Of a DNA stretch of 42,292 nt, positions 2,859 to 38,800 are shown one piece after another. The notes below the pieces were generated by a model. That model was not told the origin of the DNA. It made no database searches and saw nothing but the letters and a program-made list of their open reading frames with translations. A program made the position numbers and the translations under genes. Source of the stretch: a virus (Duplodnaviria > Heunggongvirae > Uroviricota > Caudoviricetes); IMG/VR virus record IMGVR_UViG_2651869755_000015, positions 1 through 42,292 of that record; one strand, written 5' to 3'. How positions within the stretch are numbered: position 1 is the first letter of the stretch; every line of letters begins with the position of its first letter.

Positions 2859-2967
2859 TTAATCCAACCCTCTCTGAAAATTAATGCCAGCAGATAAAGC
2901 CATGCTGAAACAGAGGCCAGGAATAAGTACCATCCTGACCATTTGCTCCAGTGCCTTAGCAGCGCAC

Positions 2968-3216
2968 TCATGCAGCGTTGCTCACAGGACGATATACACG
3001 TTGCTGAACAGGAGGTTTTTTACCCTGGAACTCTGCCGGGCTTGCTGCCTGACGTTCATCAAGCCAACGCTCAACTTCATCACGGTTCCATGCGCAGCGT
3101 TTATCGGTGATATACCAGCGTTTAGGAAATTCCCCTGCGCGCTCCATACGGTCGATAGTGCTCCATGACAGTGGCACCACCGCCAGGAGTTCCTTCTTAC
3201 CTAATGCACCTTTCAT
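2968..3216 (-). CDS. AlpA/excisionase-like HTH DNA-binding protein (possible Xis)
   Basis: 82-aa protein with winged-HTH-like segment LSWSTIDRMERAGEFPKRWYITDKRCAWNRDEVERWL resembling AlpA/Xis family proteins. Confidence 0.55.
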   Translation of the reverse strand: MKGALGKKELLAVVPLSWSTIDRMERAGEFPKRWYITDKRCAWNRDEVERWLDERQAASPAEFQGKKPPVQQRVYRPVSNAA

Positions 3217-3265: not shown

Positions 3266-4147
3266 TTACATAGATGTTTCGTTTAATTCTTCCCGACGAA
3301 CGCTGTAAACGTCGGTGGCTTTTGCCAGCAGTTCGTCATCATCTGAAAGTTTTTGTGCAATGTATTTGTAAGCCTTATCCAGTTCGGAGACAGTGCTGTA
3401 ATTCATCGCTGCGCTGGTAAAGGCCATCAGCATTTCTTCTGGATCACGGCTATCCGCTTTACGCGTTTGCTCATCAGGCTTTTTCGCTGGTTTAGCGTTG
3501 ATCAGACTGTTCATTCCCGCAGCAGTGGTCGTTTGCGGAGTAATGTCTCGCTCAACGCGCGGTGCCGTTTCCTGTAATTCGTCAGGGGTGTAAACACCGA
3601 GAAGTACATCAGGAGCGTGCAGGCGAGCCCATCGTTTCGTGCAAAGATAGGCAAGCTGCTGGCGCGGATCCTGTTCCCACAATGGAGAGTTACGCACTCC
3701 GGCTTGCGCCATACTGATGGTAAGCTCACGTGGTTCTGCTTCTCCTTTAAGGACTGCTGACACAGTTACCGTCAGATTCGGTGATTTATCTGTTTTGCCG
3801 TTAACATTCGACCAGTCACCGCTCCAGCGATAATTCAGGCGTGTCGCTAGCAGGCTGGAAGAGGATACGACCGCGTTTACCAACTGTGCTTCGTAGCCTA
3901 ACGTTCCGTTTACCACATGCGTTTTCTGCGCCACGGCGAAAGGGTTCATTCCCCACTGTGCCGCCTGCATGGTCACCGCCAGGCAATCGGCAGGTTTGCC
4001 TTCAAGATGTTTCGGTACAGTCGCTTTGCTTTGTGACATCAACTCAGCGAAACGCACCAGTTGATTCATGCCCTCGGGGCTGAAGATTGCCGCAGCAGTG
4101 CCTACAGTTGCGCCTGGTTGTGATGTGATTGCGATATCATTGCTCAT
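3266..4147 (-). CDS. Red-beta/RecT-family single-strand annealing recombinase
   Basis: 293-aa protein; segments MQAAQWGMNPFAVAQKTHVVNGTLGYEAQLVNAVV and ERDITPQ resemble lambda Bet (recalled sequence); ATGA overlap with the upstream exonuclease gene. Confidence 0.7.
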   Translation of the reverse strand: MSNDIAITSQPGATVGTAAAIFSPEGMNQLVRFAELMSQSKATVPKHLEGKPADCLAVTMQAAQWGMNPFAVAQKTHVVNGTLGYEAQLVNAVVSSSSLLATRLNYRWSGDWSNVNGKTDKSPNLTVTVSAVLKGEAEPRELTISMAQAGVRNSPLWEQDPRQQLAYLCTKRWARLHAPDVLLGVYTPDELQETAPRVERDITPQTTTAAGMNSLINAKPAKKPDEQTRKADSRDPEEMLMAFTSAAMNYSTVSELDKAYKYIAQKLSDDDELLAKATDVYSVRREELNETSM

Positions 4148-4965
4148 ACGTACATATCCTGTTTACGTGCCCAGTCAGGGCGTTTAATAATTTCCACTCC
4201 GCCCCATTCATCGTTGATGCGGCATTCGTGATAGGTATTCAGATCCCGGCGGAACAGAGCGTGCCCGGCATCGACATCTGGTGCATCCAGCTCGAACACG
4301 CGTACCGGATACCGACCACAATCAATGCTTTCGCTCACGGCAAGAAAGAAAAAACCATGCGGCTGACCAGTAACCCTCATTGCGCCTTCGCGGTACATTG
4401 CGTCCTGCACGTGGTAGCGGAATTCCTCGATGTGGCGTGCAAAACGGTCCATATCTGCAACCTTTTTCACGTCGACGATCACGTTGTGCTCGTTCAGCCA
4501 TTTGTCTGGACGAATTCGGCACAACTCACCCGTCTCTTCATCGTTCCAGTACATTGATGCTTCGCAGTAACCAGGTGCTTCCAGCATCCAGCGTGCCGCC
4601 GGATGAGCCATTGCGCTATCACGCATCAGCTCCAGTTTTCGCCACTGCTCGACATCAAGTACCGTAATACCCATATCCGCCACATCACGAAGAAATGCTT
4701 CTTCGTCAGCTTTACCTTGTTTTGTCCGACGATCGAACTTCGGTGAAACAATGAAGCGTTTGTCGAATTCTCCAGGCTCCAGAAGCAGACAGTGCAATGC
4801 GGTTCCCATATCCAGTGCAGACTTTTTCTCTTCGTCTTCTGGTGCTGCCTGAACCCATTTAAGAAGCGCCGGATTCTTGGCAACCATGTCCAGTTGCGAC
4901 TTACTCACGCCGTCACCGGCGTGGTAGTCTTCGTTGCTGATGTCGAAATAAATTCCCGGTTTCAT
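4144..4965 (-). CDS. RecE-family 5'-3' exonuclease (PD-(D/E)xK-type, exonuclease VIII-like short form)
   Basis: 273-aa protein immediately upstream of and translationally coupled to the annealing protein; resembles short phage RecE-like exonucleases. Confidence 0.65.
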   Translation of the reverse strand: MKPGIYFDISNEDYHAGDGVSKSQLDMVAKNPALLKWVQAAPEDEEKKSALDMGTALHCLLLEPGEFDKRFIVSPKFDRRTKQGKADEEAFLRDVADMGITVLDVEQWRKLELMRDSAMAHPAARWMLEAPGYCEASMYWNDEETGELCRIRPDKWLNEHNVIVDVKKVADMDRFARHIEEFRYHVQDAMYREGAMRVTGQPHGFFFLAVSESIDCGRYPVRVFELDAPDVDAGHALFRRDLNTYHECRINDEWGGVEIIKRPDWARKQDMYV

Positions 4966-5569: not shown

Positions 5570-6154
5570 TTATTGTTTGCTTTTTTCGTTCTGGTTGATG
5601 ACAAATTCAATGTAACTTTCGATCTTTGCCTTCTCTGTTTCAGGTAACAATGCGTAGCGCGAGCGGTCATAGTTGATAGTTGCAGGGTCATGCGGATGAA
5701 TCAGTAGTTCATATCCGTGACGCCCGAATGCAGATGCAACATTCTCCAGGGTGGAAATGGAAACGCTGACCTCATTGTTTAACAGGCGGCTGATTGTCAC
5801 CTGGGCGACGCCGGATGCGCGGTGAAGTTTTCCCTGAGTTGAAAGGTCGCGGCTTTCGCTCATCCAGCGTTCCAGGTTGTGAGCCGCCAGCTGACCAATG
5901 TCGCTTGGGCCGACAGGCTGAAAACCTTCCTGAGAAAGCGAGCGATCGATATCAAGCCAGTTACGGGGTTTATTGGCGGCAGCTTCAATTTTTCGCGCAA
6001 CCTGGTCGCCGATAACCTTCTTGCCAAGAGCCCAGCGGTTTACCAGATTTGCCTGAGTTCCAAGTTTTTCAGCCATCCGCGTCTGAACACCATTGAATTC
6101 ACGGTCGATCAAGTCGTTGAGATTTTGCCTGCGGACGTCCTGGATACTTTTCAT
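5570..6154 (-). CDS. Prophage repressor, tandem HTH (XRE-type), no obvious peptidase S24 domain
   Basis: 194 aa; two HTH-like segments (VQTRMAEKLGTQANLVNRW; VAQVTISRLLNNEVSVSISTLENVASAF); divergent from a Cro-like gene with three operators between them; no Ala-Gly/Ser-Lys autocleavage signature seen. Confidence 0.65.
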   Translation of the reverse strand: MKSIQDVRRQNLNDLIDREFNGVQTRMAEKLGTQANLVNRWALGKKVIGDQVARKIEAAANKPRNWLDIDRSLSQEGFQPVGPSDIGQLAAHNLERWMSESRDLSTQGKLHRASGVAQVTISRLLNNEVSVSISTLENVASAFGRHGYELLIHPHDPATINYDRSRYALLPETEKAKIESYIEFVINQNEKSKQ

Positions 6155-11859: not shown

Positions 11860-12198
11860 ATGGCTAAATCAGCAGCAGAGCGCAAAGCCGCTCAGAGAGC
11901 CAGACAAGCTGAATCCGGTGTACGTAAGCTGGAGATTGTGCTTGATGCTCAGGAAATTGAAATGCTGGAGCGTAACTGTGCCACGCGTCGCCCCGGGCGT
12001 GCGCCTTACGAATTTGGTGAGTATATAGCGTTACTGATCCGCCAGGATGATGCACGCGTGCGCGGGCGTATAAAATCGATCAGCAGAAAACGTTGCGGTA
12101 AGTGCGGCGAGAGAGTTCCTGTGAATTCATGCCCGTGTAATGGTGACTCGCAATGCTGGGTGACTAAAGGCTGGCATGAAACGAAATTAATAGTGTGA
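11860..12198 (+). CDS. Hypothetical DNA-binding protein (RHH-like N-terminus, Cys-rich zinc-ribbon-like C-terminus)
   Basis: ATG at 11860 after AAAGGTGAA; C-terminal CGKCGERVPVNSCPCNGDSQC; stop codon lies inside the 14-bp palindrome at 12194-12207. Confidence 0.45.
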   Translation: MAKSAAERKAAQRARQAESGVRKLEIVLDAQEIEMLERNCATRRPGRAPYEFGEYIALLIRQDDARVRGRIKSISRKRCGKCGERVPVNSCPCNGDSQCWVTKGWHETKLIV

Positions 12199-12207
12199 CA
12201 TGTCACG
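12194..12207. repeat. 14-bp perfect palindrome TGTGACATGTCACG (copy 1)
   Basis: Exact 14-mer shared with 14598-14611 and, in reverse complement, with 32009-32022. Confidence 0.85.
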
Positions 12208-12215
12208 AAGGTGTT

Positions 12216-12428
12216 ATGCCAAAAATACGCTACGACCTTGAAGATATGAGAGATAACTCAGCAAATTTTCCGAAAGAGGTTAAATTTCTCATGCATAAGT
12301 ATGGTTGCGCCAGGAGGGATATAGTTATCGACAGTCAGCACCCTTGCGGCGAGGATGTAATTTTCATTCGCGGTAAATGGGAAGGGTATCTTGACGAGAG
12401 TTTTTACGATGAATTTGATGGACTTTGA
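12216..12428 (+). CDS. Hypothetical protein (70 aa)
   Basis: ATG at 12216 preceded by GAAGGTG; last gene before the terminator ahead of terS. Confidence 0.4.
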   Translation: MPKIRYDLEDMRDNSANFPKEVKFLMHKYGCARRDIVIDSQHPCGEDVIFIRGKWEGYLDESFYDEFDGL

Positions 12429-12433
12429 ATACT

Positions 12434-12459
12434 GCCGCCAACTATGGCGGCTTTATTTT
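12434..12459 (+). terminator. Rho-independent terminator between early genes and terS
   Basis: Stem GCCGCC/GGCGGC, loop AACTAT, then TTTATTTT. Confidence 0.55.
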
Positions 12460-12470
12460 GCATGTTACTA

Positions 12471-12503
12471 TTACCACAACGGTAACTATTACCACGGTGG
12501 TTA
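12471..12503. promoter_or_regulatory. Operator-like dyads immediately upstream of terS
   Basis: TTACCACAACGGTAA (12471-12485) and a degenerate copy TTACCACGGTGGTTA (12489-12503) within ACTATTACCAC direct repeats. Confidence 0.5.
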
Positions 12504-13099
12504 TGATGCCTGCTGAACCTAAAACCTATAAACGCAAATCAACGCAATTTAAGCCGCTCACAGCAATGCAGGAGGCTTATTGCCAGTCATACATCAAAAC
12601 GCCTGAAAACCAGACTCAGGCAGCGATTAACGCAGGATTCTCCCCAAATACAGCGGCAGTTAAAGCCAGTGTCATGATGCGCGATGAACGCATTCAAAAA
12701 CGGATTGCCGAGTTGATGGAGGAGCGCAACAAACGAATGCGCGTCAGTGCTGATTACGTTCTCATGCGCCTGGTGGAGATCGACCAGATGGACGTGATTG
12801 ATATCCTCAACGACGATGGGAGCCTTAAGCCAATCCGCGAGTGGCCGAAAATCTGGCGCACTACGCTTAGCGGCTTTGATCTGTCATCGACCATCATGAA
12901 CATGAACGAGGATTCGATAGAGACAATCCTCAAAAAAATTAAATGGCCTGACAAGGTGAAGAACCTTGAGCTGATTGGTAAGCACGTCGATGTCAATGCA
13001 TTCAAAGAACGCCTGGATGTTAATGTGAATGTGACAATTGCTGATCGCATAGCGGCAGCCAGGAAGAGACTGAAAGAACGTCAGGATGGCAATCAGTGA
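12503..13099 (+). CDS. Terminase small subunit
   Basis: ATG at 12503 (track ORF starts upstream at 12425); HTH-like N-terminal region LTAMQEAYCQSYIKT...AAINAGFS; 4-nt overlap with terL. Confidence 0.65.
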   Translation: MMPAEPKTYKRKSTQFKPLTAMQEAYCQSYIKTPENQTQAAINAGFSPNTAAVKASVMMRDERIQKRIAELMEERNKRMRVSADYVLMRLVEIDQMDVIDILNDDGSLKPIREWPKIWRTTLSGFDLSSTIMNMNEDSIETILKKIKWPDKVKNLELIGKHVDVNAFKERLDVNVNVTIADRIAAARKRLKERQDGNQ

Positions 13100-14571
13100 C
13101 AGATGCAGCGTTATCTCCTGAAGAGCAGTTGATCGAGGATATTGCAGGGTTCACTCACGATCCGCTTGGCTATGCCCTCTATGCGTTCCCGTGGGGGGAA
13201 GAGGGGACTGAACTGGCACATGCCACCGGTCCACGTCAGTGGCAGGCTGATGCGTTCCGAGAGATACGTGATCACCTGCAGAATCCAGAGACGCGCTATC
13301 AGCCGCTTATGCTGGCACGCGCTTCTGGTCACGGTATTGGTAAATCCGCATTCATCTCAATGCTGATCAACTGGGGCATGTCCACTTGCGAGGATTGTAA
13401 GGTCGTGGTGACCGCCAACACCGACAACCAGCTACGAACGAAGACCTGGCCGGAAATTATCAAGTGGTCGAACCTTGCTATCACGAAAGACTGGTTTACC
13501 TGTACCGCTACCGCGATGTACAGCAATGATCCTGGGCACGACAAGCGGTGGCGAGCTGACGCAATCCCCTGGTCTGAGCACAACACTGAGGCATTCGCCG
13601 GATTACACAACGAGCGCAAACGCATCATCGTGGTATTCGATGAAGCGTCGAACATTGCGGATCTGGTGTGGGAAGTTGCTGAGGGTGCGCTTACGGACGA
13701 AGACACTGAGATTATCTGGGTGGCGTTCGGAAACCCGACGCGTAATACCGGGCGATTCCGTGAATGTTTCCGCAAGTATAAACACCGCTGGAAAACTGCG
13801 CAGATTGACAGCCGGACGGTGGAAGGCACCAACAAACAGCAGTTGCAGAAATGGGTTGATGACTACGGGGAAGACAGCGACTTCGTTAAAATCCGTGTGC
13901 GCGGCATATTCCCGGATGCATCTGAATTGCAGTTTATCCCTACCGGTCTTACTGACGAGGCAATGAAACGGGTGGTAACCGCTGCGCAGGTGGCACATGC
14001 TCCGGTGATAATCGGCGTTGACCCGGCATACTCCGGTGTTGATGACGCTGTGATATACCTGCGGCAGGGGCTGCACAGTAAGGTGCTGTGGACTGGCAAC
14101 AAGACCACTGACGATCTGATTATGGCGAAGCGTATCGCTGACTTTGAAGACCAGTATCAGGCTGACGCGGTGTTCATCGACTTCGGTTACGGAACCGGTT
14201 TGAAGTCAATCGGTGATGGCTGGGGTCGTACATGGCAACTTGTTCCGTTCGGTGGCGCGTCTACTGACCCGCAGATGCTCAACAAGCGTGGGGAGATGTT
14301 CAACTCATGCAAGACATGGCTGAGGCTCGGCGGCATGCTGGATGACCAGGAAACAGCGGACGACCTGTCGACGGCAGAGTACAAAGTTCGCGTGGACGGT
14401 AAAATCGTTATCGAACCGAAGGAAGATATCAAAGAGCGACTTGGGCGTTCTCCTGGTAAAGGCGATGCGCTACTGCTGACGTTTGCGTTCCCTGTGTCGA
14501 AGCGTCTGCGAATTCCCGGGCAGCAGAACCAGCAAGGCAAAGCCATCACAGACTATGATCCTTTTGCATAA
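13096..14571 (+). CDS. Terminase large subunit
   Basis: 491 aa; Walker A-like ASGHGIGKS; size and position after terS. Confidence 0.9.
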   Translation: MTDAALSPEEQLIEDIAGFTHDPLGYALYAFPWGEEGTELAHATGPRQWQADAFREIRDHLQNPETRYQPLMLARASGHGIGKSAFISMLINWGMSTCEDCKVVVTANTDNQLRTKTWPEIIKWSNLAITKDWFTCTATAMYSNDPGHDKRWRADAIPWSEHNTEAFAGLHNERKRIIVVFDEASNIADLVWEVAEGALTDEDTEIIWVAFGNPTRNTGRFRECFRKYKHRWKTAQIDSRTVEGTNKQQLQKWVDDYGEDSDFVKIRVRGIFPDASELQFIPTGLTDEAMKRVVTAAQVAHAPVIIGVDPAYSGVDDAVIYLRQGLHSKVLWTGNKTTDDLIMAKRIADFEDQYQADAVFIDFGYGTGLKSIGDGWGRTWQLVPFGGASTDPQMLNKRGEMFNSCKTWLRLGGMLDDQETADDLSTAEYKVRVDGKIVIEPKEDIKERLGRSPGKGDALLLTFAFPVSKRLRIPGQQNQQGKAITDYDPFA

Positions 14572-14574
14572 AAA

Positions 14575-14594
14575 AGCCCGCGAATCGGCGGGCT
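14575..14594 (-). terminator. Hairpin terminator (mainly minus-strand) between terL and moron
   Basis: Stem AGCCCGC/GCGGGCT with T-run on the minus strand; adjacent to palindrome copy 2. Confidence 0.5.
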
Positions 14595-14597
14595 GAT

Positions 14598-14611
14598 TGT
14601 GACATGTCACG
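14598..14611. repeat. 14-bp perfect palindrome TGTGACATGTCACG (copy 2)
   Basis: Identical 14-mer to copy 1. Confidence 0.85.
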
Positions 14612-14614
14612 GCG

Positions 14615-15037
14615 TTAGAAGGTTATTTTATCGAATGCGGCGTTGATTGCCTTGGCGTCCTGCTCAGCACCAACCACATCAAGTAAAGATCTTTTACTAA
14701 GCACTTCAGCCAGGCATTGTAACTTCATGTTGTATAAGTTTTCGCGCATGTAATCATCATCACTTTTTTCTTTGGCGTATACAGCGCGAGAAATATCAAA
14801 CACATTGCCTTTTTCCATTTCAGTTTTCTGCGCTGAAATCCAGTCATGGCAAGTAACTCCTATTCCATGGTCATCGCTAAGCGTTAACCCGGCAAGTCGC
14901 TCACCTGGAATTGCTTCACAAAGCATTTCATTTCCTGCAAAAACACCATAAAAAATTGAGTCATCACCCTGAACAATGCGTACATATTTGCACGGCCATT
15001 CATTTAGATATTTAGCTAGCATGTCGGCTGTTTTCAT
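14615..15037 (-). CDS. Hypothetical moron protein (140 aa)
   Basis: Opposite-strand gene inserted between terL and portal, bounded by terminator hairpins on both sides. Confidence 0.5.
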   Translation of the reverse strand: MKTADMLAKYLNEWPCKYVRIVQGDDSIFYGVFAGNEMLCEAIPGERLAGLTLSDDHGIGVTCHDWISAQKTEMEKGNVFDISRAVYAKEKSDDDYMRENLYNMKLQCLAEVLSKRSLLDVVGAEQDAKAINAAFDKITF

Positions 15038-15060
15038 GATCTCACCTTAAAAAAATGCCC

Positions 15061-15084
15061 GGCGAACCGGGCTGTACTGGTTTA
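15061..15084 (-). terminator. Rho-independent terminator downstream of tRNA
   Basis: Minus strand GCCCGGTTCGCCGGGC followed by ATTTTTTT. Confidence 0.5.
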
Positions 15085-15202
15085 CAGCATGAAGTCATCG
15101 CAATGGCGTCCTGCTGTAAAAAGGGCGGTGATAGTTCTTCAAGGGAAACCATCACCGCCAAGCCCCTGGAACTTCTGGCATCACGGTCCTCAGGCGTGAT
15201 TC

Positions 15203-15279
15203 TGGCGTGGCATGCAGGATTCGAACCTGCGACCAACCGCTTAGAAGGCGGTTGCTCTGTCCAACTGAGCTAATGCCAC
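15203..15279 (-). tRNA. tRNA-Arg (anticodon UCU)
   Basis: Minus-strand 77-nt sequence GTGGCATTAGCTCAGTTGGACAGAGCAACCGCCTTCTAAGCGGTTGGTCGCAGGTTCGAATCCTGCATGCCACGCCA folds as a cloverleaf (7-bp acceptor stem, GTTCGAATC T-loop, anticodon loop CTTCTAA, 3' CCA). Confidence 0.85.
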
Positions 15280-15601
15280 AACGCTGAGAGCACTTAGCCT
15301 GTTAAGGCGCCACACTTTGTCGCGGCTCCATAAATGCTCTCATCGTTGTACCCTCGTCTCTTCCGAGGCGTCACACCGAATCGCCGGGATGGTGAATCCC
15401 CGTGCGCGGAATAAAACCGCTCGACTTGCACATTCCGGCTACCTGGTTCGTTTGCCCGAGCAAGGGAGGGTGCCCCTTAAACGTATCCAGACCGCTATCG
15501 TCGCATGTGCCATACGCCGTACTGCTCAAAATAAAAGCTCACTCCACCTGTTCAATTTAACGACAAGCCAGTCAGGTTAGTAACCGGAATGAACTCTTTA
15601 G

Positions 15602-15616
15602 TTACCTGAAAGGTAA
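15602..15616. promoter_or_regulatory. Operator-like dyad TTACCTGAAAGGTAA upstream of the structural operon
   Basis: Perfect dyad, identical to the site at 35706-35720; followed by CATATGTGGTTAAATTGGTAAT. Confidence 0.55.
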
Positions 15617-15706
15617 TAATTTGTGCGTTAAATGTCAACTGTCTACGATAAATAAATCATATGTGGTTAAATTGGTAATAATTTAATTGCGTACGGAGTC
15701 ATTGAT

Positions 15707-15913
15707 ATGTGCATGGGTAGCTCACCATCAGTGCCTGCAACACCAGAAGTTCAGGCAGCACCACAGGAGCAGGATGCCGCCGTTGTTGATGCCCGCGACG
15801 AAGAAACACGTCGCCGTCGCGCTGCTGCTGGTCGTAGTTCTACGCTGCTTACCGGTTCTCAGGGCGACACATCAACCGCTAATACCAGCGGTAAAACGCT
15901 GCTTGGTCAGTAA
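15707..15913 (+). CDS. Hypothetical small protein (68 aa) preceding portal
   Basis: ATG preceded by CGGAGTCATTGA, the same initiation context as the portal gene; low-complexity sequence. Confidence 0.35.
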   Translation: MCMGSSPSVPATPEVQAAPQEQDAAVVDARDEETRRRRAAAGRSSTLLTGSQGDTSTANTSGKTLLGQ

Positions 15914-15927
15914 CCGGAGTCATTGAA

Positions 15928-17607
15928 ATGGCGGAAACAACTAAAGAGCGATTGAACAAACAGTTCGCACAACTTGAAAGCGAGCGTCAGTCGTTCGAGC
16001 CGCACTGGCGCGAGTTGAGTGATTACATCAACCCGCGTGGTTCCCGCTTTCTGACTTCTGAGGCCAACCGTAACGATCGGCGCAATACACGCATTATTGA
16101 TTCGACCGGGACTATGGCGGCGCGCACTCTCGCCAGCGGCATGATGTCAGGCATCACAAGCCCCGCGCGTCCGTGGTTTCGCCTGGCTACGCCAGATCCT
16201 GAAATGATGGATTATGGCCCTGTTAAGTTGTGGCTTGAGGCAGTTCAGAACCGCATGAACGATATGTTCAATAAGTCGAATCTCTACCAGTCTCTTCCGC
16301 AGTTATACGGAAGCCTCGGCACATACAGCACTGGTGCAATGGCAGTGCTGGAGGATGACGAGGACATCATTCGCACAATGCCATTCCCGATAGGCAGTTA
16401 CTACCTGGCTAACTCACCTCGTGGCAGTGTTGACACCTGTTTTCGCAAGTTCTCTATGACTGTTCGTCAGCTTGTTCAGGAGTTCGGGCTAAATAACGTC
16501 AGCGAATCCGTAAAAAGCATGTGGGAAAGCGGCACCTACGAGAAGTGGATCGAAGTGATGCATTCGGTTTACCCGAACATTGACCGCGATACATCGAAGC
16601 TGGATAGCAAGAACAAGCCATTCAAATCGGTTTATTACGAGGTTGGTGGAGATAACGACAAGTTGTTGCGTGAGTCCGGATTCGATGAGTTTCCAATTAT
16701 GGCTCCGCGCTGGGAAGTTAACGGCGAAGATGTTTATGGATCATCATGCCCGGGTATGCTGGCGCTTGGGCCTGTTAAGGCATTGCAGCTTCTCCAGAAG
16801 CGCAAGTCGCAGTTGATTGATAAAGCCACCAATCCGCCGATGGTTGCTCCGACTTCCCTCAAGAATCAGCGCGCCTCCCTTCTTCCTGGCGACATCACGT
16901 ATATCGATCAGATTACTGGTCAGGATGGCTTCAGGCCTGCTTATCTGGTTAACCCCAGTACAGCAGATTTGGTGGCAGACATTCAGGACACTCGTCAAAT
17001 CATTAACAGCGCCTACTTTGTCGATCTGTTCATGATGTTGCAGAACATCAATACCCGCTCGATGCCTGTTGAAGCGGTGATCGAAATGAAAGAAGAAAAA
17101 CTTCTGATGTTGGGGCCGGTTCTGGAGCGTCTGAACGACGAATGTCTTAATCCTCTCATTGACCGCGCTTTCTCGATGATGGTGCGCAAAAACATGCTGC
17201 CGCCACCGCCTGACGCGATGGAAGGCATGCCCCTGAAGGTCGAATACATTTCCGTCATGGCTCAGGCGCAGAAGTCTATCGGCCTGTCCAGTCTGGCGTC
17301 CACGGTTAACTTCATTGGTCAACTTGCGCAAGCGAAACCAGAAGCTCTCGACAAACTCAACGTTGATCAGGCGATCGATGCATTCGCTGATATGTCCGGA
17401 GTGTCTCCAACCGTCATTGTTCCGCAGGAACAGGTTGAGCAGGCTCGCCAGCAACGGGCACAGCAACAACAGCAGCAACAAATGATGGCGATGGGGATGG
17501 CGGCGGCACAGGGGGCCAAGACGCTAAGCGAAGCTAAAACTTCGGATCCGAGTGTGTTGTCAGCTATGGCGAATGCAGTTAGTGGTCAGGGTGGGCAATC
17601 ACAATGA
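15928..17607 (+). CDS. Portal (head-to-tail connector) protein, podovirus/T7-like
   Basis: 559 aa; Gln/Ala/Met-rich C-terminus (QQRAQQQQQQQMMAMGMAAAQGA) resembling the recalled T7 gp8 C-terminus; position after terminase. Confidence 0.8.
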   Translation: MAETTKERLNKQFAQLESERQSFEPHWRELSDYINPRGSRFLTSEANRNDRRNTRIIDSTGTMAARTLASGMMSGITSPARPWFRLATPDPEMMDYGPVKLWLEAVQNRMNDMFNKSNLYQSLPQLYGSLGTYSTGAMAVLEDDEDIIRTMPFPIGSYYLANSPRGSVDTCFRKFSMTVRQLVQEFGLNNVSESVKSMWESGTYEKWIEVMHSVYPNIDRDTSKLDSKNKPFKSVYYEVGGDNDKLLRESGFDEFPIMAPRWEVNGEDVYGSSCPGMLALGPVKALQLLQKRKSQLIDKATNPPMVAPTSLKNQRASLLPGDITYIDQITGQDGFRPAYLVNPSTADLVADIQDTRQIINSAYFVDLFMMLQNINTRSMPVEAVIEMKEEKLLMLGPVLERLNDECLNPLIDRAFSMMVRKNMLPPPPDAMEGMPLKVEYISVMAQAQKSIGLSSLASTVNFIGQLAQAKPEALDKLNVDQAIDAFADMSGVSPTVIVPQEQVEQARQQRAQQQQQQQMMAMGMAAAQGAKTLSEAKTSDPSVLSAMANAVSGQGGQSQ

Positions 17608-31447: not shown

Positions 31448-32008
31448 ATGAAGGCAATTATATTTTTTGTTTCAATATTGATGTCTGCATTTTCTTTTGC
31501 AGGGCAAAATGTTAAATGCGAACTTCAATACTTTGGAGATAGCGATAAATTTAAGGTAACTCAGTTTTCTTTTATGGGGATTCCATCTGATTCATACCTT
31601 TATACCTGTGCCGACTGTGGAGGCATCCAGATAAACGTGTTCCCATCTATTCAGACTGTTGCCTCCTACTCATTTGAAAACAACATTGATTTCGAAAGGA
31701 AAATCAATGCTGAATACAACAGAAAAGACATAGCTAAACTTGAGATGGAAAACGTTACTCAAGGCGGGAGAATAAAATATTCAATCACCGATACTGGTTT
31801 GGCAGAGTTTTACCCAGAGGGCAAAAAGATAAGCTACCTCTACTTTTTAGCCAAGCAACAAAATGGTAAAGAACAAGTAGGTTATTCAGGATTTGTTACC
31901 TCTAACGGGGATAAGTCATGCTCAATTATTGCGACATATCCAGGAAAAGAAATTTCTTTTCTGGGAAGTAAATCTTTAAGCTACTTTATGAATCATATAT
32001 CAATGTAG
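31448..32008 (+). CDS. AT-rich secreted protein (signal peptide), accessory
   Basis: N-terminal MKAIIFFVSILMSAFSFAGQ signal-peptide-like; visibly AT-rich codon usage; followed by palindrome copy 3. Confidence 0.55.
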   Translation: MKAIIFFVSILMSAFSFAGQNVKCELQYFGDSDKFKVTQFSFMGIPSDSYLYTCADCGGIQINVFPSIQTVASYSFENNIDFERKINAEYNRKDIAKLEMENVTQGGRIKYSITDTGLAEFYPEGKKISYLYFLAKQQNGKEQVGYSGFVTSNGDKSCSIIATYPGKEISFLGSKSLSYFMNHISM

Positions 32009-32022
32009 CGTGACATGTCACA
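32009..32022. repeat. 14-bp perfect palindrome CGTGACATGTCACA (copy 3, inverted orientation)
   Basis: Exact reverse complement of the 14-mer at 12194 and 14598. Confidence 0.85.
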
Positions 32023-32123
32023 GGCCGCTTTCGCGGTCTTGTTTTTAACGGATGCCACCGCCACCCGGGCGGGAATCCGCAGAACGCCCACCGCAGCGGG
32101 AGCCGTCAGCAGCAGTGTCGCTG

Positions 32124-32627
32124 TTATACTATTGAGTTAAATGATATCTTGTCCTTAATATCATTAAGTTTGCCATATATCTTTTTTGCATAAAAATCAG
32201 CTTCCTCAATAAACTTCGACTTCTCATTATCAGGCATATTTTTGAAGGTATGTGCACATGTATATTGAGAGTAGTAATTGTGAAACTTGTTATACATATT
32301 ATTGAGTTCTTGTAAGTCTTTTTTATACTCAGGAAGGTATATGTTTATTAGCATTTCCATCGTTTGCAACGGATTGACTTTTGATGTGTCAAATTTACTA
32401 TCAGAGTGGTAACTGGCATTGTTAACAAAATTGAGAATAGCCATTTTGTTTGAAGCTATGACTTTTTCAGTAAGTATGCAATTTGTGAATAATTGCTCAC
32501 GTTTATCTCTTAATATTTTTTCGCGCTCTAATTTTATGCTGTTTTTGTATCCTTGCCTTGCACTTATGTAAGTAGAAACTATAGCAATAACTGCACCTAT
32601 CAATGCGCCTAAGATAGTATTATCCAT
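32124..32627 (-). CDS. AT-rich membrane-anchored protein (1 predicted TM), accessory
   Basis: ATG at 32627 after AGGTGG; N-terminal hydrophobic helix ILGALIGAVIAIVSTYI; Lys/Asn/Tyr-rich soluble domain. Confidence 0.5.
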   Translation of the reverse strand: MDNTILGALIGAVIAIVSTYISARQGYKNSIKLEREKILRDKREQLFTNCILTEKVIASNKMAILNFVNNASYHSDSKFDTSKVNPLQTMEMLINIYLPEYKKDLQELNNMYNKFHNYYSQYTCAHTFKNMPDNEKSKFIEEADFYAKKIYGKLNDIKDKISFNSIV

Positions 32628-32652
32628 ATAAGCCACCTAAACTGCGTAAAAA

Positions 32653-33516
32653 TTATTTCCTGCCACTTCTGTAGTATATGTTGCGACCATTTTTGGTCAC
32701 ATTAACAACATGACCCTTTGTTTCTACTTTGTTATTGGTTGCCTTATATACTTCAAAGTCAAACCATGATATATGACTTATTTCGTCTATAGATACCATA
32801 ATTTCTAGACCTTGAACTTTCTTTTTGCTTATCCCTTTTATCGCAGCACTGCGCTTAATTTGGATTTCACCTGGGTAAGCGTTTGTAAATGTAACAGATA
32901 AATTTTCTTTGTTTCTGTACCCTGACATTAAAGGAACAAAAGATATGTGTTGGTGTGGCCCTTGATTTTCCGTTGGCTCACCAGAACCATTTATTATTCC
33001 AACGTATACTTTATTTGATGATAAAGTAATTAACATTGGTTTCTTAGGATCTGATTCGATTGCATCAAGCAATAGCAAATCTAAAGAACCCTGGGAGTAC
33101 GTTTTTCGCAATACTCTAGCTTTCATTGCCTCTGATATTTTGTCATAAATATCACGTTTATAAAAACAACCTAAAAGAAGATCTTTTAGCCAAACAAAAG
33201 ATACATAACACAAAGAGAAGCAAATTGATGTGACTGACAGAAGAAGTAGCCACATGTAAATTCTATCTGTTTCTGGTTTTGACGTTACATTAAAAGTTTC
33301 CACCATGTCGTGAACTAGGTGAAAATCAGGATATTTACATTTTATAAATGCGGCAATTATTACTGAAGCAACAAGGCAATATGTACCTAATGCAGCTACT
33401 TTCATATAAAGAAGCTGGCCTTCATGTCGGTATAAACGGAAATAATGATACTGGTTAGCGGTTATCATAATATAACCACTAACCAGAATGGGGATAATTA
33501 GAAGAGCTAACAACAC
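32653..33516 (-). CDS. AT-rich multi-pass membrane protein, accessory
   Basis: 287 aa; about 3 hydrophobic helices in the first ~110 residues then a soluble domain; GTG start overlapping the upstream stop (TAGTG). Confidence 0.55.
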   Translation of the reverse strand: MLLALLIIPILVSGYIMITANQYHYFRLYRHEGQLLYMKVAALGTYCLVASVIIAAFIKCKYPDFHLVHDMVETFNVTSKPETDRIYMWLLLLSVTSICFSLCYVSFVWLKDLLLGCFYKRDIYDKISEAMKARVLRKTYSQGSLDLLLLDAIESDPKKPMLITLSSNKVYVGIINGSGEPTENQGPHQHISFVPLMSGYRNKENLSVTFTNAYPGEIQIKRSAAIKGISKKKVQGLEIMVSIDEISHISWFDFEVYKATNNKVETKGHVVNVTKNGRNIYYRSGRK

Positions 33517-33725
33517 TATTTCCTTACAGTGGCAAGATCCTGTTTAACAATTGCAGCAGCGAGACGACGCATCTCTTTAACCTCAGGAAGCTCAGAAATT
33601 TGCTGTGATGAGATATATACTCCACCACGCTTGTTAACCTGCGCTGACGCCGGAACTTCTGCATTTTTTGCCTGAGGGCTGGGTGCATTATCCCTCGTTT
33701 TTGTACGAGCGAACCAAAATCCCAT
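33516..33725 (-). CDS. Hypothetical small protein (69 aa), first gene of the accessory operon
   Basis: Normal-GC ORF translationally coupled to the membrane protein; operator dyad upstream. Confidence 0.4.
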   Translation of the reverse strand: MGFWFARTKTRDNAPSPQAKNAEVPASAQVNKRGGVYISSQQISELPEVKEMRRLAAAIVKQDLATVRK

Positions 33726-33751
33726 ATCTCCTCCTCATGTAAACACATGGT

Positions 33752-33766
33752 TTACCTTTAGGGTAA
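33752..33766. promoter_or_regulatory. Operator-like dyad TTACCTTTAGGGTAA
   Basis: Perfect dyad in the 113-bp spacer upstream of the accessory operon; preceded by ACACATGGTT. Confidence 0.55.
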
Positions 33767-33838
33767 TAGTACGCTATTCACTCCCAGTCTGCAATCTGTA
33801 CAGAATTATTTAAAGGCACATCCCTGTGCCGCCGCCCG

Positions 33839-34573
33839 TCAGAAGAACCCTGCCTTGTCGTTGATGTACTCCGCGTGGGTCTGGATATCACGCAGGCATT
33901 TGCTCACACCGACGATGTAGCAGAACATGGTGGTCAGCTCCGCCGCCGCGCCCGATACGTCGTGCCCGTCTTCCTGTAACTGGTTCAGCAGATTCATCAG
34001 CAGTGAGTTCTCCGTCAGGCCGAGAACACCAGACGGCGAATGAATCAGGCTGCGGTAGCCGGGCTTCAGTGGGGCACTGTATTCTTTTTTGTCTTCCAGC
34101 TTGATCGCCTCCATAATGGCGGGCATGAATTTTTCAATTACCTGAGTGGCCTTTGATAAATCAGCTCCACCTGAGAGACGAACATCTCCACTGACATTTG
34201 CGGGTTTTCTGTCGAAGTAGCAATCTTCCAGTTTTTCGAAGACCTCCCACGCTTTTTCAGTCTCAAGAATTTTCGCATGTCGTGCTGCACCGCGAGCGGT
34301 CCATAAGAAAAGATGACTTACTTTTGGTGCAATATTAAGCAAACCTCTTTGAGAGGACTCGTTCTTAAATGCTCGTAATTCTTCGCCTATCAGCTTGAAA
34401 CAATGTTTTCCCTCAATGAATCGATCTGCATTTCGTTGATAGTTTTGACGAATCAGTTTGGGTTCTGTGTCATACAAATCAGCAAGCATTTCTGTAGTCA
34501 TTACAGGGATGTTGCAATGAGTTGTTATCGGCAACTTATCAATAGCTATATTACGCATTTTCATTGCCTCCAT
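33839..34573 (-). CDS. Antirepressor-like protein (ORF6N/Ant N-terminal domain plus C-terminal domain)
   Basis: N-terminal VMTTEMLADLYDTEPKLIRQNYQRNADRFIEGKHCFKL matches the ORF6N/Ant pattern; C-terminal ~70 aa homologous to the 35372-35629 product. Start may be 34558 or 34564. Confidence 0.65.
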   Translation of the reverse strand: MEAMKMRNIAIDKLPITTHCNIPVMTTEMLADLYDTEPKLIRQNYQRNADRFIEGKHCFKLIGEELRAFKNESSQRGLLNIAPKVSHLFLWTARGAARHAKILETEKAWEVFEKLEDCYFDRKPANVSGDVRLSGGADLSKATQVIEKFMPAIMEAIKLEDKKEYSAPLKPGYRSLIHSPSGVLGLTENSLLMNLLNQLQEDGHDVSGAAAELTTMFCYIVGVSKCLRDIQTHAEYINDKAGFF

Positions 34574-35057
34574 CTTTCACGACGAAATAGCAATTATCTT
34601 TATAATCTAACTGGATGAACTTTATGTTTTCAGGGAGTTTTACAGAAAGAGTTTTTGCACAAGCAAAACCAAAATCTGCGCCAGAAGCATCCATATACCT
34701 TAATAATTGTTTTAATGCTGAAGGAGAAAAAGTATCTACCTTCACCTCAACAGGGTAACCATCTTTTGTTTTTAGGTCTGGTTGACCTGGTCCACCAAGT
34801 ATTTCAGCGTTAAGGTATTTTGCTATTTCTGGATAAGCGTTGTATTCAGAGCGTAGTTTTGCCTTGTTATCGACTGCTAGTTGCATAAGATGATCAAACA
34901 AATTGGTATCTAAATCTGCCCCTTCATCCCACATTCTATTTCTACAGCTAATCAATTCACTGACCAGTGGTGCACTTTCTTGCCTTAGCATAAGAAGGAG
35001 TGGAGAATTAGAAATTAACCAATACAGATCGTCGTTTGAGATTTTTTGGCCTGGCAT
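34551..35057 (-). CDS. Hypothetical protein (168 aa) co-transcribed with antirepressor
   Basis: ORF with stop overlapping the ant start region. Confidence 0.45.
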   Translation of the reverse strand: MPGQKISNDDLYWLISNSPLLLMLRQESAPLVSELISCRNRMWDEGADLDTNLFDHLMQLAVDNKAKLRSEYNAYPEIAKYLNAEILGGPGQPDLKTKDGYPVEVKVDTFSPSALKQLLRYMDASGADFGFACAKTLSVKLPENIKFIQLDYKDNCYFVVKDGGNENA

Positions 35058-35211
35058 AGCGATACCTCTACTAGTAAGTTACCCACCACCGCAACGCCAA
35101 TTGCTGGTGGTGAACTGGACAAGGTTGGCGTACCGGCCTAGTAGGTACCGGCGCACCTTTCGGTGCCCCTGCCCAGCCCACCATAATTCGGATATGACTG
35201 TGCTATACGCA

Positions 35212-35235
35212 TAAAAAAACCACGTCTGGCGTGGT
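35212..35235 (-). terminator. Rho-independent terminator downstream of small antirepressor gene
   Basis: Minus strand ACCACGCCAGACGTGGT followed by TTTTTTT. Confidence 0.55.
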
Positions 35236-35325
35236 ATGCGCCTACTAGTAATCCGGGACGCCAATCCCGGCACTGGATTTTGCCAGTGCCTGATTACTAT
35301 GGCACAAGAGGAGTGCGATGTAAAT

Positions 35326-35824: not shown

Positions 35825-38800
35825 ATGACGGTCTCAACCGAAGTTGACCACAACGAATACACAGGTAACGGCGTTACGACATCATTTCCGTATACCTTTA
35901 GGGTTTTCAAGGAATCTGATCTGGCAGTACAGGTGGTTGACCTTGACGAAAATATCGCTGTGCTGGCTCTTGATACTGATTACACTGTCACTGGGGCTGG
36001 TGGATATAATGGCGGTAATGTAATTCTGTCGAAGGCGTTAGCTAACGGTTATCAGATTTCTATATCACGAGAGCTACCAGTTACGCAGGAAACTGATCTG
36101 CGAAATCAGGGAAAGTTTTTCGCTGAGGTGCATGAAGACGCGTTAGATAAGCTGACGATGCTGATACAGCAAGTCCGCGGTTGGTTTAGCCTGGCGCTGC
36201 GCAAGCCATCATTTGTGGCAAACTATTACGATGCTTTGAATAATTACATCCGCAATTTGCGCGATCCTTCCAAGCCTCAAGATGCAGCTACAAAGAATTA
36301 TGTTGATAATATTGTTAATGTGAATATTAACAGGACATTACGGGTTCCAGATAATTTTATTGAACCACTTCCTCCAGTTCATTTACTGGAAGAAACTGTC
36401 ATTGGTATCGTCAATGGTAAACCTATAGGTGTACCTGTGCCTTCTGGCAGTGCCGCAGATGTTCTTCTGCAATTATCTAGCGCAGGAGAAGGAAAAGGTG
36501 ATGCATTAATTGGTGTAAGGCAGCCATTTGCCGGGGCTGTAACTATAACTCAGCATGAAAACAATGCTCTTTTCTTAAATGTAAAACAATTCGGAGCAAT
36601 TGGGGATGGGAAATATCATCCATTATCTGAGAGGTTTTCTTCAATTTCTGAAGCAAAATCCTTATATCCTTTTGTTGACTCATTATCTCAGTCAATAGAC
36701 TGGGCCGCGTGGCAAGCTGCCATTAACACAGGAAAGGTTATTTATGGTACTGATAATGCGTATGTAATAACGGATACGTTAACACCTGTTTCTGGTGGTG
36801 GGATAATTGGTCTTGGTGTGGGCAAATGGGTCTCCGGATATACTGCAACATTTGCTCCTGATATTACCACAGGGACCACATTCCTGATGTACGGTGTAGG
36901 AAATAAAAAATATACTGTAGATTGTGTTTCTAATATGGATGTTAGTGGTGGTGTGGTTTCTAATCCATCTTCCGAAGACCCGTATACAACAACGGCACCT
37001 GCGTCATCATATGATTTATTGGATTTTACTAACGGTGATGCTAATGGGGCTACAAGAGCCACGCTTAAACCATTCTCTGCCGCAATATTGATGCCAGAGA
37101 CAGGGTGTGTTCGCCTTGAGAACTTTCGTATTGTTCCATATTTCAATGGGCTGGATGGTTATAAAGACATTGCAAATACCGGTCTTGGCGATGAGTGGGA
37201 TGTAGGTATTTGGTCACGTGCGTCTTTTGGCAATGAATACCGCAATTTGCAGGTGGTTGGATACTGGCGCAAGACGGCACTTTTAAAAACGAACATTCCT
37301 GTATCTGGCACGCTGGCCGCTCAGGGCGAGGATGAAAACTATTATCACTGTAGATTCCAGGGATTCAAGGGTGTTTCGATCCGCGCCCATGATGTATTCC
37401 GAATTACAGCGGTAACGTCCAGCACTATCGAAATCCCATGGTCAGCAAGCCACACCTTCGAAACGTCCGGGGTTTTAAGATCGGGAGGCAGGAATTTCAC
37501 TTATTCAGGATTATCCGTATCCGGTGATAAGTTAGTATTTACTGGAGTGTCTAACGCTTCTGAGGCAACAGTAGGTTCTACTATACGGCGAAATGACATA
37601 GATAACTTTGGTATGGCGGGAACGCAATTTTTCGATTGCTACATTACCAGCCTGTATCACCACACACATCTGCTTGCCACATCGCAATACCTGTCTCAGC
37701 CATTCAGCCGGCCATCAGAGTGTATGGAGGTTTCAGGGGAACCAGTTCGCGGTGTACAGGTACATGCAGGAACCATTCAGGGATGGGATGATGTTCTTAT
37801 TCATCTACATGACTGTGGAAATATGAACTTTTACAGTACATATTTCGAAAGCCAGCCAGCATATGTAACTATAAATGGTGGTAATGCTATTGGTTATGGA
37901 GCACGTATGATAGCTTCCCGGCAATCAACAAGCTCATTACCATATGCAGCAGGGAATACTCGAGTGCTTAGAATGGTCGGGTGCTCTGAAGGCAATGGCG
38001 TTGACTGGGGTCCTGTATTTAACAACTATACAGGAGGAAGATATAATTCTGGAGACGGTGTATTTAACCCCCGCGATGCATTTATAGACCATAAATCTCT
38101 TCCTGAGCAGTCAGGAGGTGAGTCAAGACTCGTATCACAAAAAGGAAATGCCAGAGTAGTATGTGGTGTTGGTAAAACTGTACTGCTTGGACCAACGTCA
38201 GGAGATTGTAATTTACAGAGCAATACTGGAAGTTTAAATATTAGAAGTGGGATAAGAGTAAGAATCGGTCACGCTGATGGAACAGACTGGTGGTTGGCAG
38301 ATGCTAATAAAATAGCTCCTGTTGATGATAATGTTAAAGCTATTGGACAGCCATCAAACAGATGCTCTGTTATCTATGCAGGAACCGGGTCAATCAATAC
38401 GTCAGATGAAACTCTTAAAACAAGATATGATATTCTTAATGCAGAGCGTAATGCCGCTATTGAAATAAAGTCAGTCATCTATAAATTTAAATTTAATGAC
38501 TCAATTAATCACAAAGGAATTGAGTCGTCCAGGTATCATTTTGGCGTTGGCGCTCAAACCGTAGGGGATATTCTTAGAAAGCATGGTTTAAACCCGGAGC
38601 AATATGCTTTTTGGTGTTACGATGAATGGCCTGACGTATGGGATGAAGAGGTGATAACTGAAGAGAGCACAGATCCTGATACAGGTGAGAAAATTTATTC
38701 TCAATATAAAACAGGAGATATGATTCTTGTAAAAAAAGCAGGAGGACGCTACGGAATTCGTTATGACGAATTAGCCATGTTTATATTAATGTCAATGTAA
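35825..38800 (+). CDS. Tailspike/tail fibre with T7 gp17-like N-terminal adaptor and C-terminal intramolecular chaperone-like domain
   Basis: 991 aa; N-terminus TGNGVTTSFPYTFRVF...DTDYTV parallels the recalled T7 gp17 N-domain; Gly/Thr/Ser-rich central region; C-terminal ~150 aa resemble auto-cleaving chaperone (S74-like) domains. Confidence 0.75.
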   Translation: MTVSTEVDHNEYTGNGVTTSFPYTFRVFKESDLAVQVVDLDENIAVLALDTDYTVTGAGGYNGGNVILSKALANGYQISISRELPVTQETDLRNQGKFFAEVHEDALDKLTMLIQQVRGWFSLALRKPSFVANYYDALNNYIRNLRDPSKPQDAATKNYVDNIVNVNINRTLRVPDNFIEPLPPVHLLEETVIGIVNGKPIGVPVPSGSAADVLLQLSSAGEGKGDALIGVRQPFAGAVTITQHENNALFLNVKQFGAIGDGKYHPLSERFSSISEAKSLYPFVDSLSQSIDWAAWQAAINTGKVIYGTDNAYVITDTLTPVSGGGIIGLGVGKWVSGYTATFAPDITTGTTFLMYGVGNKKYTVDCVSNMDVSGGVVSNPSSEDPYTTTAPASSYDLLDFTNGDANGATRATLKPFSAAILMPETGCVRLENFRIVPYFNGLDGYKDIANTGLGDEWDVGIWSRASFGNEYRNLQVVGYWRKTALLKTNIPVSGTLAAQGEDENYYHCRFQGFKGVSIRAHDVFRITAVTSSTIEIPWSASHTFETSGVLRSGGRNFTYSGLSVSGDKLVFTGVSNASEATVGSTIRRNDIDNFGMAGTQFFDCYITSLYHHTHLLATSQYLSQPFSRPSECMEVSGEPVRGVQVHAGTIQGWDDVLIHLHDCGNMNFYSTYFESQPAYVTINGGNAIGYGARMIASRQSTSSLPYAAGNTRVLRMVGCSEGNGVDWGPVFNNYTGGRYNSGDGVFNPRDAFIDHKSLPEQSGGESRLVSQKGNARVVCGVGKTVLLGPTSGDCNLQSNTGSLNIRSGIRVRIGHADGTDWWLADANKIAPVDDNVKAIGQPSNRCSVIYAGTGSINTSDETLKTRYDILNAERNAAIEIKSVIYKFKFNDSINHKGIESSRYHFGVGAQTVGDILRKHGLNPEQYAFWCYDEWPDVWDEEVITEESTDPDTGEKIYSQYKTGDMILVKKAGGRYGIRYDELAMFILMSM

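Follow-up and report, generated by a model that had tools for sequence, protein, structure and literature searches.

A conserved leftward accessory unit with exchangeable cargo, a tRNA gene and a structured RNA lies between the terminase and portal genes of Uetakeviruses

Introduction

Morons, in the sense of Hendrix, are extra and exchangeable genes of distinct composition that lambdoid and other temperate phages carry with a terminator of their own and set against the flanking late genes. Temperate enterobacterial phages, among them the O157 typing phages 9 and 10, phiv142-3 and SPN9TCW, also carry single argU-like genes for the rare-codon tRNA-Arg(UCU), and the argO gene of Stx phages is another gene of this type. 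Phage HK022 encodes the put RNAs, cis-acting processive antiterminators of ~70 nucleotides (nt) that form two stems. Finally, two protein families of phages act as sponges against host defence: PF13876 (Phage_gp49_66) is the Acb4 sponge directed against the cyclic-oligonucleotide-based antiphage signaling system (CBASS), and PF11195 is the Tad2 anti-Thoeris sponge (bioRxiv 10.1101/2024.12.30.630793, 10.1101/2025.07.12.664507). Here we describe a locus that resembles each of these in part, namely positions 14571-15279 and their surroundings in IMG/VR record IMGVR_UViG_2651869755_000015 (the window, 42,292 nt in all), where a 140-amino-acid (aa) open reading frame (ORF) and a tRNA-Arg(UCU) gene lie between the terminase large subunit gene, terL, and the portal gene.

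By sequence comparison the window is a Uetakevirus, that is, an epsilon15/phiV10-like temperate podovirus of Escherichia coli. Escherichia phage vB_EcoP_PAS61 is its closest relative (97.7% identity over 14300-16000), and the flanks are ~98% identical to phiV10, ZX5 and the O157 typing phages 9 and 10. The initial annotation of the interval, made from the sequence alone, had reported a minus-strand 140-aa ORF and a tRNA bracketed by terminator-like hairpins and a palindrome, and all of these are indeed present (Table 1). Judged against public relatives, where they are already annotated as 'hypothetical protein' and tRNA-Arg, the two genes are ordinary in kind. They form the distal half of a leftward accessory unit that is conserved in Uetakevirus in its anatomy and its borders; cargo genes are exchanged between those borders, and the cargo of relatives includes Acb4-family and Tad2-like genes. 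A fuller account, which adds a host-directed role for the cargo, its expression in lytic growth and a decoding role for the tRNA, is the one we favor, with confidence slightly on the positive side of even.

Results

Unrelated cargo genes occupy a slot with fixed borders

We aligned the window with PAS61, phiV10 and TL-2011b, and then with SPN9TCW, a Klebsiella phage, Enterobacter and Citrobacter prophages and epsilon15. The conserved sequence reaches as far as the cargo start codon and takes in the tRNA, terminator A, hairpin I1, terminator B with its U-tract, and the Shine-Dalgarno sequence AAGGTGA, which is kept in relatives with different cargo. The equivalent of terminator B in epsilon15 is annotated as a rho-independent terminator. 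On the distal side, the 12-bp palindrome and terminator C are common to the window, PAS61 and phiV10, the palindrome holding the same position in the latter two despite the different cargo of phiV10, and the palindrome recurs 3′ of the cargo in most other relatives. The genes between these borders are unrelated and differ among PAS61, phiV10, TL-2011b, epsilon15, SPN9TCW and the Klebsiella phage.

Known sponge families are found among this cargo. PF13876 matches phiV10 gp03 (E 6e-35) and the epsilon15 protein (E 4e-37), PF11195 matches the Tad2-like cargo of Klebsiella phage ST512-KPC3phi13.3 (E 4e-26), and TL-2011b and SPN9TCW carry other proteins. In a census of 32 dereplicated Uetakevirus loci the slot was filled in 30. 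Acb4/PF13876 genes were the most frequent occupants (11/32 loci), followed by the 140-aa family (9/32), a 262-292-aa membrane protein with transmembrane and coiled-coil segments (5/32) and Tad2-like genes (2/32); the rest belonged to rare families seen in one or two loci each. In the window the 140-aa gene occupies the same slot, with the same borders, as the Acb4-family genes of phiV10, epsilon15 and many prophages. In the loci examined the family is confined to this slot, which houses it in each of the nine census cases and in the three homologues traced to their genomic context, and an Enterobacter prophage carries a tandem array of a 140-aa homologue, an Acb4-family gene and another small gene.

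Table 1. Features of the terL-portal interval and related sites in the window.
Feature	Position	Strand	Description
terS	12425-13099		PF03592
terL	13096-14571		terminase large subunit by the annotation of PAS61 and phiV10
Terminator C	14594-14575	minus	hairpin AGCCCGCCGATTCGCGGGCT then TTTTTT; 7 pairs, 6 of them GC; ends the cargo gene
Palindrome, copy 2 of 3	14599-14610		perfect 12-bp palindrome GTGACATGTCAC; just past the cargo stop codon, distal border of the exchangeable cassette
Cargo ORF	14615-15037	minus	140 aa, ATG start; from the ORF list; phrog_4846
Shine-Dalgarno of cargo gene	15042-15048	minus	AAGGTGA; between the terminator B U-tract and the ATG
Terminator B	15072-15057	minus	GCCCGGTTCGCCGGGC then ATTTTTTT; directly upstream of the cargo gene, kept in all relatives
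Hairpin I1	15081-15120	minus	18-nt arms, 83% complementary; conserved; 5′ arm overlaps the T-run of terminator A
Terminator A	15159-15124	minus	14-bp stem then CTTTTT; downstream of the tRNA
tRNA-Arg(UCU)	15203-15279	minus	encoded CCA; ARAGORN and Rfam
Structured RNA	15346-15520	minus	~175 nt; five covarying helices and a pseudoknot; invariant stretch GGUAGCCGGAAUGUGCAAG
Weak terminator-like site	15587-15568	minus	consensus scan
Operator-like palindrome	15602-15616		TTACCTGAAAGGTAA; covers the -10 of the leftward promoter
Sigma-70-type promoter	-35 15633-15638; -10 15610-15615	minus (leftward)	TTGACA, 17-nt spacer, TACCTT
gp3-like ORF	15707-15913		68 aa; also inside the terL-portal gap
Portal gene	15928-17607		PF12236, E 9e-188
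TTACC-N5-GGTAA sites	5436, 5498, 6210, 6258, 6595, 8541, 8603, 12471, 12489, 15602, 31810, 33752, 35326, 35706, 39331

The hairpins of the slot are directional. A consensus scan of 14300-16000 returned four terminator-like sites, all four on the minus strand, and no plus-strand T-runs at the terminator hairpins; rightward transcription could therefore cross the slot. The spacer between the tRNA and the ORF is itself predicted to fold strongly (z = -4.3 against shuffles).

The palindrome that marks the distal border occurs three times in the window (12195-12206, 14599-14610 and 32010-32021) against 0.08 copies expected. The first copy lies upstream of terS and overlaps the stop codon of an ORF matching phrog_536 ('transcriptional regulator'), copy 2 is downstream of both terL and the cargo gene, and copy 3 stands where the long rightward gene block ends; these positions are conserved in many Uetakevirus loci. 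A regulator site and a recombination border are both possibilities for GTGACATGTCAC. Next to this border, at 14572-14575, the window is without 47 nt, including a small palindrome, ATCCTCTGATGAGGAT, that PAS61, phiV10 and TL-2011b have between the terL stop codon and terminator C.

The best promoter candidate upstream of the cargo is overlapped by a putative operator

The best-scoring minus-strand promoter candidate in 15030-15700 is the TTGACA/TACCTT pair upstream of the structured RNA. Both hexamers are conserved in relatives, with one substitution each in Klebsiella and Enterobacter, and the spacer sequence is variable. Its -10 is covered by a palindrome of the form TTACC-N5-GGTAA, a motif with 15 sites in the window against 0.71 expected. 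Most of these sites are intergenic, with pairs that flank a helix-turn-helix (HTH) repressor gene (5570-6154) and lie in the divergent region between that gene and a small regulator gene, and the set as a whole would be a dispersed operator array like the scattered C1 operators of P1. The epsilon15 homologue of the 15602-15616 site is annotated 'repressor', and the corresponding repressor blocks lytic genes in ZX5 (PMC9782041). Motif enrichment and position thus point to 15602-15616 as a putative repressor operator. A second promoter-like site (15550-15555/15528-15533) was rejected, as it is not conserved in relatives.

Closer to the cargo gene, neither the consensus scan nor promoter scoring gave a credible sigma-70-like promoter between the tRNA and the cargo ATG. 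The ~19 nt from the terminator B hairpin to the ATG are filled by the U-tract and the Shine-Dalgarno sequence, and the best promoter-like match near the ORF would set its -10 over the start codon. With an operator-like palindrome over the one good promoter upstream, and none beside the ORF, expression of the cargo appears more likely in lytic growth, by read-through of the terminators, than in the lysogen.

These observations bear on the proposal, made in the initial annotation, that the ORF is a lysogen-expressed moron. In the classical form of that proposal the 140-aa gene would be autonomous, with its own promoter, and would be active in the repressed prophage, where it would confer lysogenic conversion, fitness or superinfection exclusion. 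Much of the description fits: the gene is inserted and exchangeable, lies on the strand opposite to the late genes, has a G+C content (GC) of 0.41 and ends at its own terminator, some slot cargo is membrane-like, as is typical of exclusion factors, and in TL-2011b terminator B and the cargo are separated by additional sequence, with room for a promoter. What is missing is the autonomy. Unlike a classical moron, the cargo gene starts right after a terminator U-tract with no promoter of its own found, shares a conserved upstream promoter and putative operator with the structured RNA and the tRNA, and shows no indication of expression in the lysogen. The sequence thus suggests that this is not a lysogen-expressed moron, and we regard a classical moron as unlikely.

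The tRNA would serve AGA-rich genes outside the structural block

ARAGORN called a single tRNA in the window, tRNA-Arg with the anticodon tct, and RF00005 gave it 73.3 bits, well over the gathering score (29), which bears out the tRNA and its anticodon as first annotated. In alignment with argU of E. coli K-12, the anticodon loop (CUUCUAA), the D arm and the T arm are the same, and the acceptor and anticodon stems differ by paired, compensatory changes.

AGA use was counted in 39 likely window genes, with 62 annotated K-12 coding sequences as the host reference. The window genes have 5.75 AGA per 1000 codons and the host genes 2.18, a difference that is unevenly distributed: the packaging and structural block (terS to 31448) has 2.49 per 1000, which is the host level, and the remaining window genes have 8.71, about four times that level. 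The largest count falls in the tailspike gene (35825-38800), with 13 AGA and 6 AGG among 44 Arg codons, and several early and low-GC accessory genes are AGA-rich too. The idea that the tRNA helps translation of the late genes consequently remains plausible for the tailspike and is not borne out for the packaging and structural genes; supplementation of AGA decoding for tailspike, early and accessory genes, rather than for a 'late operon', is plausible on this codon count. In this the locus departs from the argU-like tRNAs of other temperate phages, as it does in the setting of the tRNA, which follows a structured RNA within a leftward unit that separates terL from the portal gene. Major AGA users are the tailspike and a block of ORFs at 31448-35057, low in GC (0.31-0.38) and mostly on the minus strand, that are probably horizontally acquired accessory genes.

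The tRNA could alternatively serve counter-defence in the main, replacing a host tRNA-Arg(UCU) destroyed or depleted through a tRNA-targeting defence system or toxin, so that RNA, tRNA and cargo would make up a counter-defence operon. Phage tRNAs that rescue from anticodon nucleases are known. The tRNA here belongs to the same unit as a slot used for anti-defence genes, AGA is scarce in the core structural genes and so most late proteins do not need the codon supply, and the compensatory changes in the two stems set it apart from argU. Against this, an anticodon loop the same as that of argU would not evade a loop-recognizing nuclease, the elevated AGA use of tailspike, early and accessory genes suffices to explain the tRNA, and the rest of the unit persists without the tRNA in several relatives, namely epsilon15 and the prophages of Enterobacter and Citrobacter. 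We consider a chiefly counter-defensive tRNA quite improbable. A role of the tRNA as attachment site was rejected, because close relatives integrate at guaA through an attP that adjoins int (PMC9782041).

The 140-aa protein defines a narrow, conserved family

The predicted cargo protein is acidic (isoelectric point (pI) 4.8) and is matched end to end by phrog_4846, a family of unknown function. Scans against Pfam, NCBIfam and PADLOC (E up to 1) gave no match, nor did Pfam, PF13876 and PF11195 included, when 30 family members were scanned one by one. A Foldseek comparison of the protein model with BFVD returned weak, unnamed matches only, and a profile search of 1.84 billion protein representatives found no distant relatives outside a narrow family of 111 homologues (31 representatives at 50% identity).

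Within this family, all 111 full-length homologues are named 'hypothetical' and come from E. coli, Salmonella, Citrobacter, Klebsiella, Enterobacter and Hafnia. They range from 40% to 99% identity, with conserved length, 18 invariant residues and a uniformly acidic pI (4.5-5.9); the N-terminal half is variable, and a C-terminal helical hairpin is strongly conserved and mosaic. The gene is present in 101 of 5426 complete E. coli genomes (at least 80% coverage of the locus). That the ORF is a degenerate or non-functional passenger, silenced by the two terminators directly upstream so that only the tRNA and the RNA matter, would agree with its narrow family and lack of a known function or fold, and is very improbable for a gene with this many full-length homologues, this degree of residue and length conservation, a good and conserved Shine-Dalgarno sequence, retention in so many E. 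coli genomes and a slot that is so rarely empty.

A covarying RNA precedes the tRNA and recurs in three phage groups

The most novel item of the locus lies just outside 14571-15279, upstream of the tRNA. Promoter and tRNA are 320 nt apart, and the stretch that separates them contains no conserved ORF, varies by indels that are not multiples of three and is conserved even in relatives without the tRNA. We drew a structure by hand for the ~175-nt RNA encoded here, with five helices and a pseudoknot from a loop to downstream sequence, and scored it on a MAFFT alignment of 31 diverse copies. In that alignment 93.8% of positions assigned to pairs were paired, against 32-47% with slid partners, 15 of the 31 pairs had changed on both sides, and the covariation score was reached by none of 500 shuffles. 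A covariance-model alignment of 99 copies gave 94.8% pairing with 17 of the 31 pairs changed on both sides; the pseudoknot, which had been left out of the model, was 99.3% paired and included 15 switches from C-G to A-U. Invariant G-U pairs assign the RNA to the minus strand. The covariance model matches the window once, at 144.7 bits, and Rfam gave no match over 15346-15520 at gathering thresholds or up to E = 10. As the folding energy is not exceptional (z = +0.76), the case for an RNA structure rests on covariation. RNAalifold also indicated that an invariant GCACAU could pair over a long range with AUGUGC (~15505-15510 with ~15426-15431; alignment columns 11-16 and 99-104). This pairing would exclude the 3′ strand of helix 1, and the RNA may accordingly have two conformations and act as a switch.

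By blastn the core of the RNA was found in all Uetakeviruses, in lambdoid phages (mEp460, cdtI, Stx2c and Stx2a phages, 1720a-02 and mEp390) and in P1, P7, D6, RCS47 and SJ46. The lambdoid copies lie just downstream of the cI terminator and of PL-type operators, on the cI strand; the mEp460 copy (2501-2674 of its locus, L011) is ~45 nt downstream of a PL-like promoter and operators. The P1-type copies lie between trnI and ban, in the C1-controlled ban operon. Other copies include one at 2501-2681 of locus L010 and ~100 IMG/VR loci, and a 15-mer of the RNA matches more than 120 IMG/VR contigs. Of 118 unique loci, ~41 are the Uetakevirus slot and at least 8 are of P1 type; in ~60 the RNA is encoded on the same strand as, and downstream of, either a cI-type repressor gene (these repressors are diverse) or the same left-operon genes. 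Beyond phage records, a 19-mer of the RNA was found in 24 of 185,579 species genomes, Enterobacteriaceae with few exceptions, and the locus is matched in part in 1080 of 5426 complete E. coli genomes, with 276 places on plasmids, P1-like ones included. None of the listed phage records or RefSeq E. coli records annotates the RNA. One IMG/VR prophage (L036) has two copies, at 3994-4153 and 4801-4958 (both minus), ~650 nt apart around an opposite-strand ORF.

The RNA was compared with known phage RNAs of similar location. It is not the prophage small RNA svsR, which lies inside the 3′ end of cI, and it is unrelated to the mEpimmI nut sites. Like putL of HK022, the lambdoid copies closely follow the cI terminator and PL-type operators, the RNA has no evident partner protein, and terminator hairpins come after it; in the window, mEp460 and the P1 ban operon alike, the RNA is found downstream of a promoter that is, or would be, under repressor control, the position to be expected of a put-like element. 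Unlike put, it is ~175 nt long with five helices and a pseudoknot, and it is present in a single copy per genome, with the two-copy prophage as the one IMG/VR case to differ. The RNA has no blastn similarity to the cI-nun region of HK022 and no covariance-model match in HK022 loci, and by these comparisons it is not a put homologue.

Since the RNA stands at the head of repressor-controlled early transcripts and is followed by terminators in the window and in mEp460, a role in cis in elongation or termination, put-like in function, is an attractive possibility by analogy; a trans-acting RNA or a role in processing may apply instead. Counts of intrinsic terminators downstream of the RNA did not discriminate it from antisense and upstream controls. 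A further likeness between the window (15081-15159, minus) and mEp460 (~2880-3020 of its locus) concerns what follows the RNA: at some distance both have a hairpin GGCGGT...ACCGC and then CTTTTTACA, which in both continues into the 5′ arm of another long hairpin. The corresponding CGCYCUUUUUACA is loosely boxA-like.

A separate RNA-containing module lies elsewhere in the window. Rfam identified a C4 antisense RNA at 35103-35188 (minus, 76.7 bits) and an isrK Hfq-binding RNA at 35213-35289 (minus, 68.1 bits), both adjoining the gene of an ORF6N-domain protein (33839-34573). By sequence this set looks like an antirepressor control module of the P1/P7 immI type.

Discussion

We propose that the interval between terL and the portal operon holds a leftward accessory unit that would be read, on the minus strand, from a promoter with its -10 in an operator through the ~175-nt RNA, the tRNA, terminator A, hairpin I1 and terminator B to the Shine-Dalgarno sequence and cargo gene, and on to the palindrome and terminator C. 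In the lysogen the repressor would shut this unit, and it would fire on induction or infection. Cargo transcripts would start at the upstream promoter, and either leaky termination or some aid from the upstream RNA would carry them past terminators A and B. The acidic 140-aa protein may then act as an anti-defence or other host-manipulating factor, and lytic or early expression fits an anti-defence role because such genes are needed early. The argU-like tRNA would supplement AGA decoding, its chief beneficiaries being the tailspike, early and accessory genes rather than the core structural genes.

The part of this proposal that concerns the protein takes up a suggestion of the initial annotation, that the ORF may be an anti-defence factor, which gains from the Acb4-family and Tad2-like genes in the slot of relatives and loses by the protein's match to neither family. 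We think the chances of an anti-defence function approach even at best. Several points weigh against the proposal as a whole. The candidacy of the 140-aa protein comes by association, from the families of its slot neighbors. Compared with Acb4 and Tad2 by sequence and profile alone, this acidic protein has no similarity to them (an HHalign comparison of the family with the slot's Acb4 alignment gave a probability of 0.2%) and belongs, on that comparison, to neither family. A profile search and a fold comparison against the PDB gave no match, and the AlphaFold model, with an alpha/beta N-domain and a helical C-domain, is of moderate quality (pLDDT 79, pTM 0.48). The slot is not exclusively an anti-defence one, some of its cargo resembling membrane or other proteins. 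On the side of expression, the operator is a prediction based on where the enriched motif lies, the pair of terminators directly upstream might leave the cargo with hardly any expression, and processive read-through would also run antisense into terL.

A broader interpretation would join the RNA and the cargo. In it the RNA would represent a new, portable and protein-independent class of regulatory RNA in temperate enterobacterial phages. Placed at the start of repressor-controlled early transcripts in Uetakevirus, lambdoid and P1-like phages, it would target the transcribing polymerase or the transcript itself, perhaps as a processive antiterminator of the put kind; in the window it would allow read-through of terminators A and B into an early anti-defence cargo, and the 140-aa proteins would be a new anti-defence family. 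This is a tentative and rather doubtful combination.

For the Uetakeviruses, the presence in the same slot of families with experimentally demonstrated immune-signal sponge activity makes the 140-aa family, and several other unknown cargo families found there, concrete and cheaply testable anti-defence candidates. The RNA reaches further, as it occupies positions of early-transcript control in three unrelated groups of temperate phages. Should it prove to govern elongation or termination, RNA-only antitermination as represented by put of HK022 would gain a second kind.

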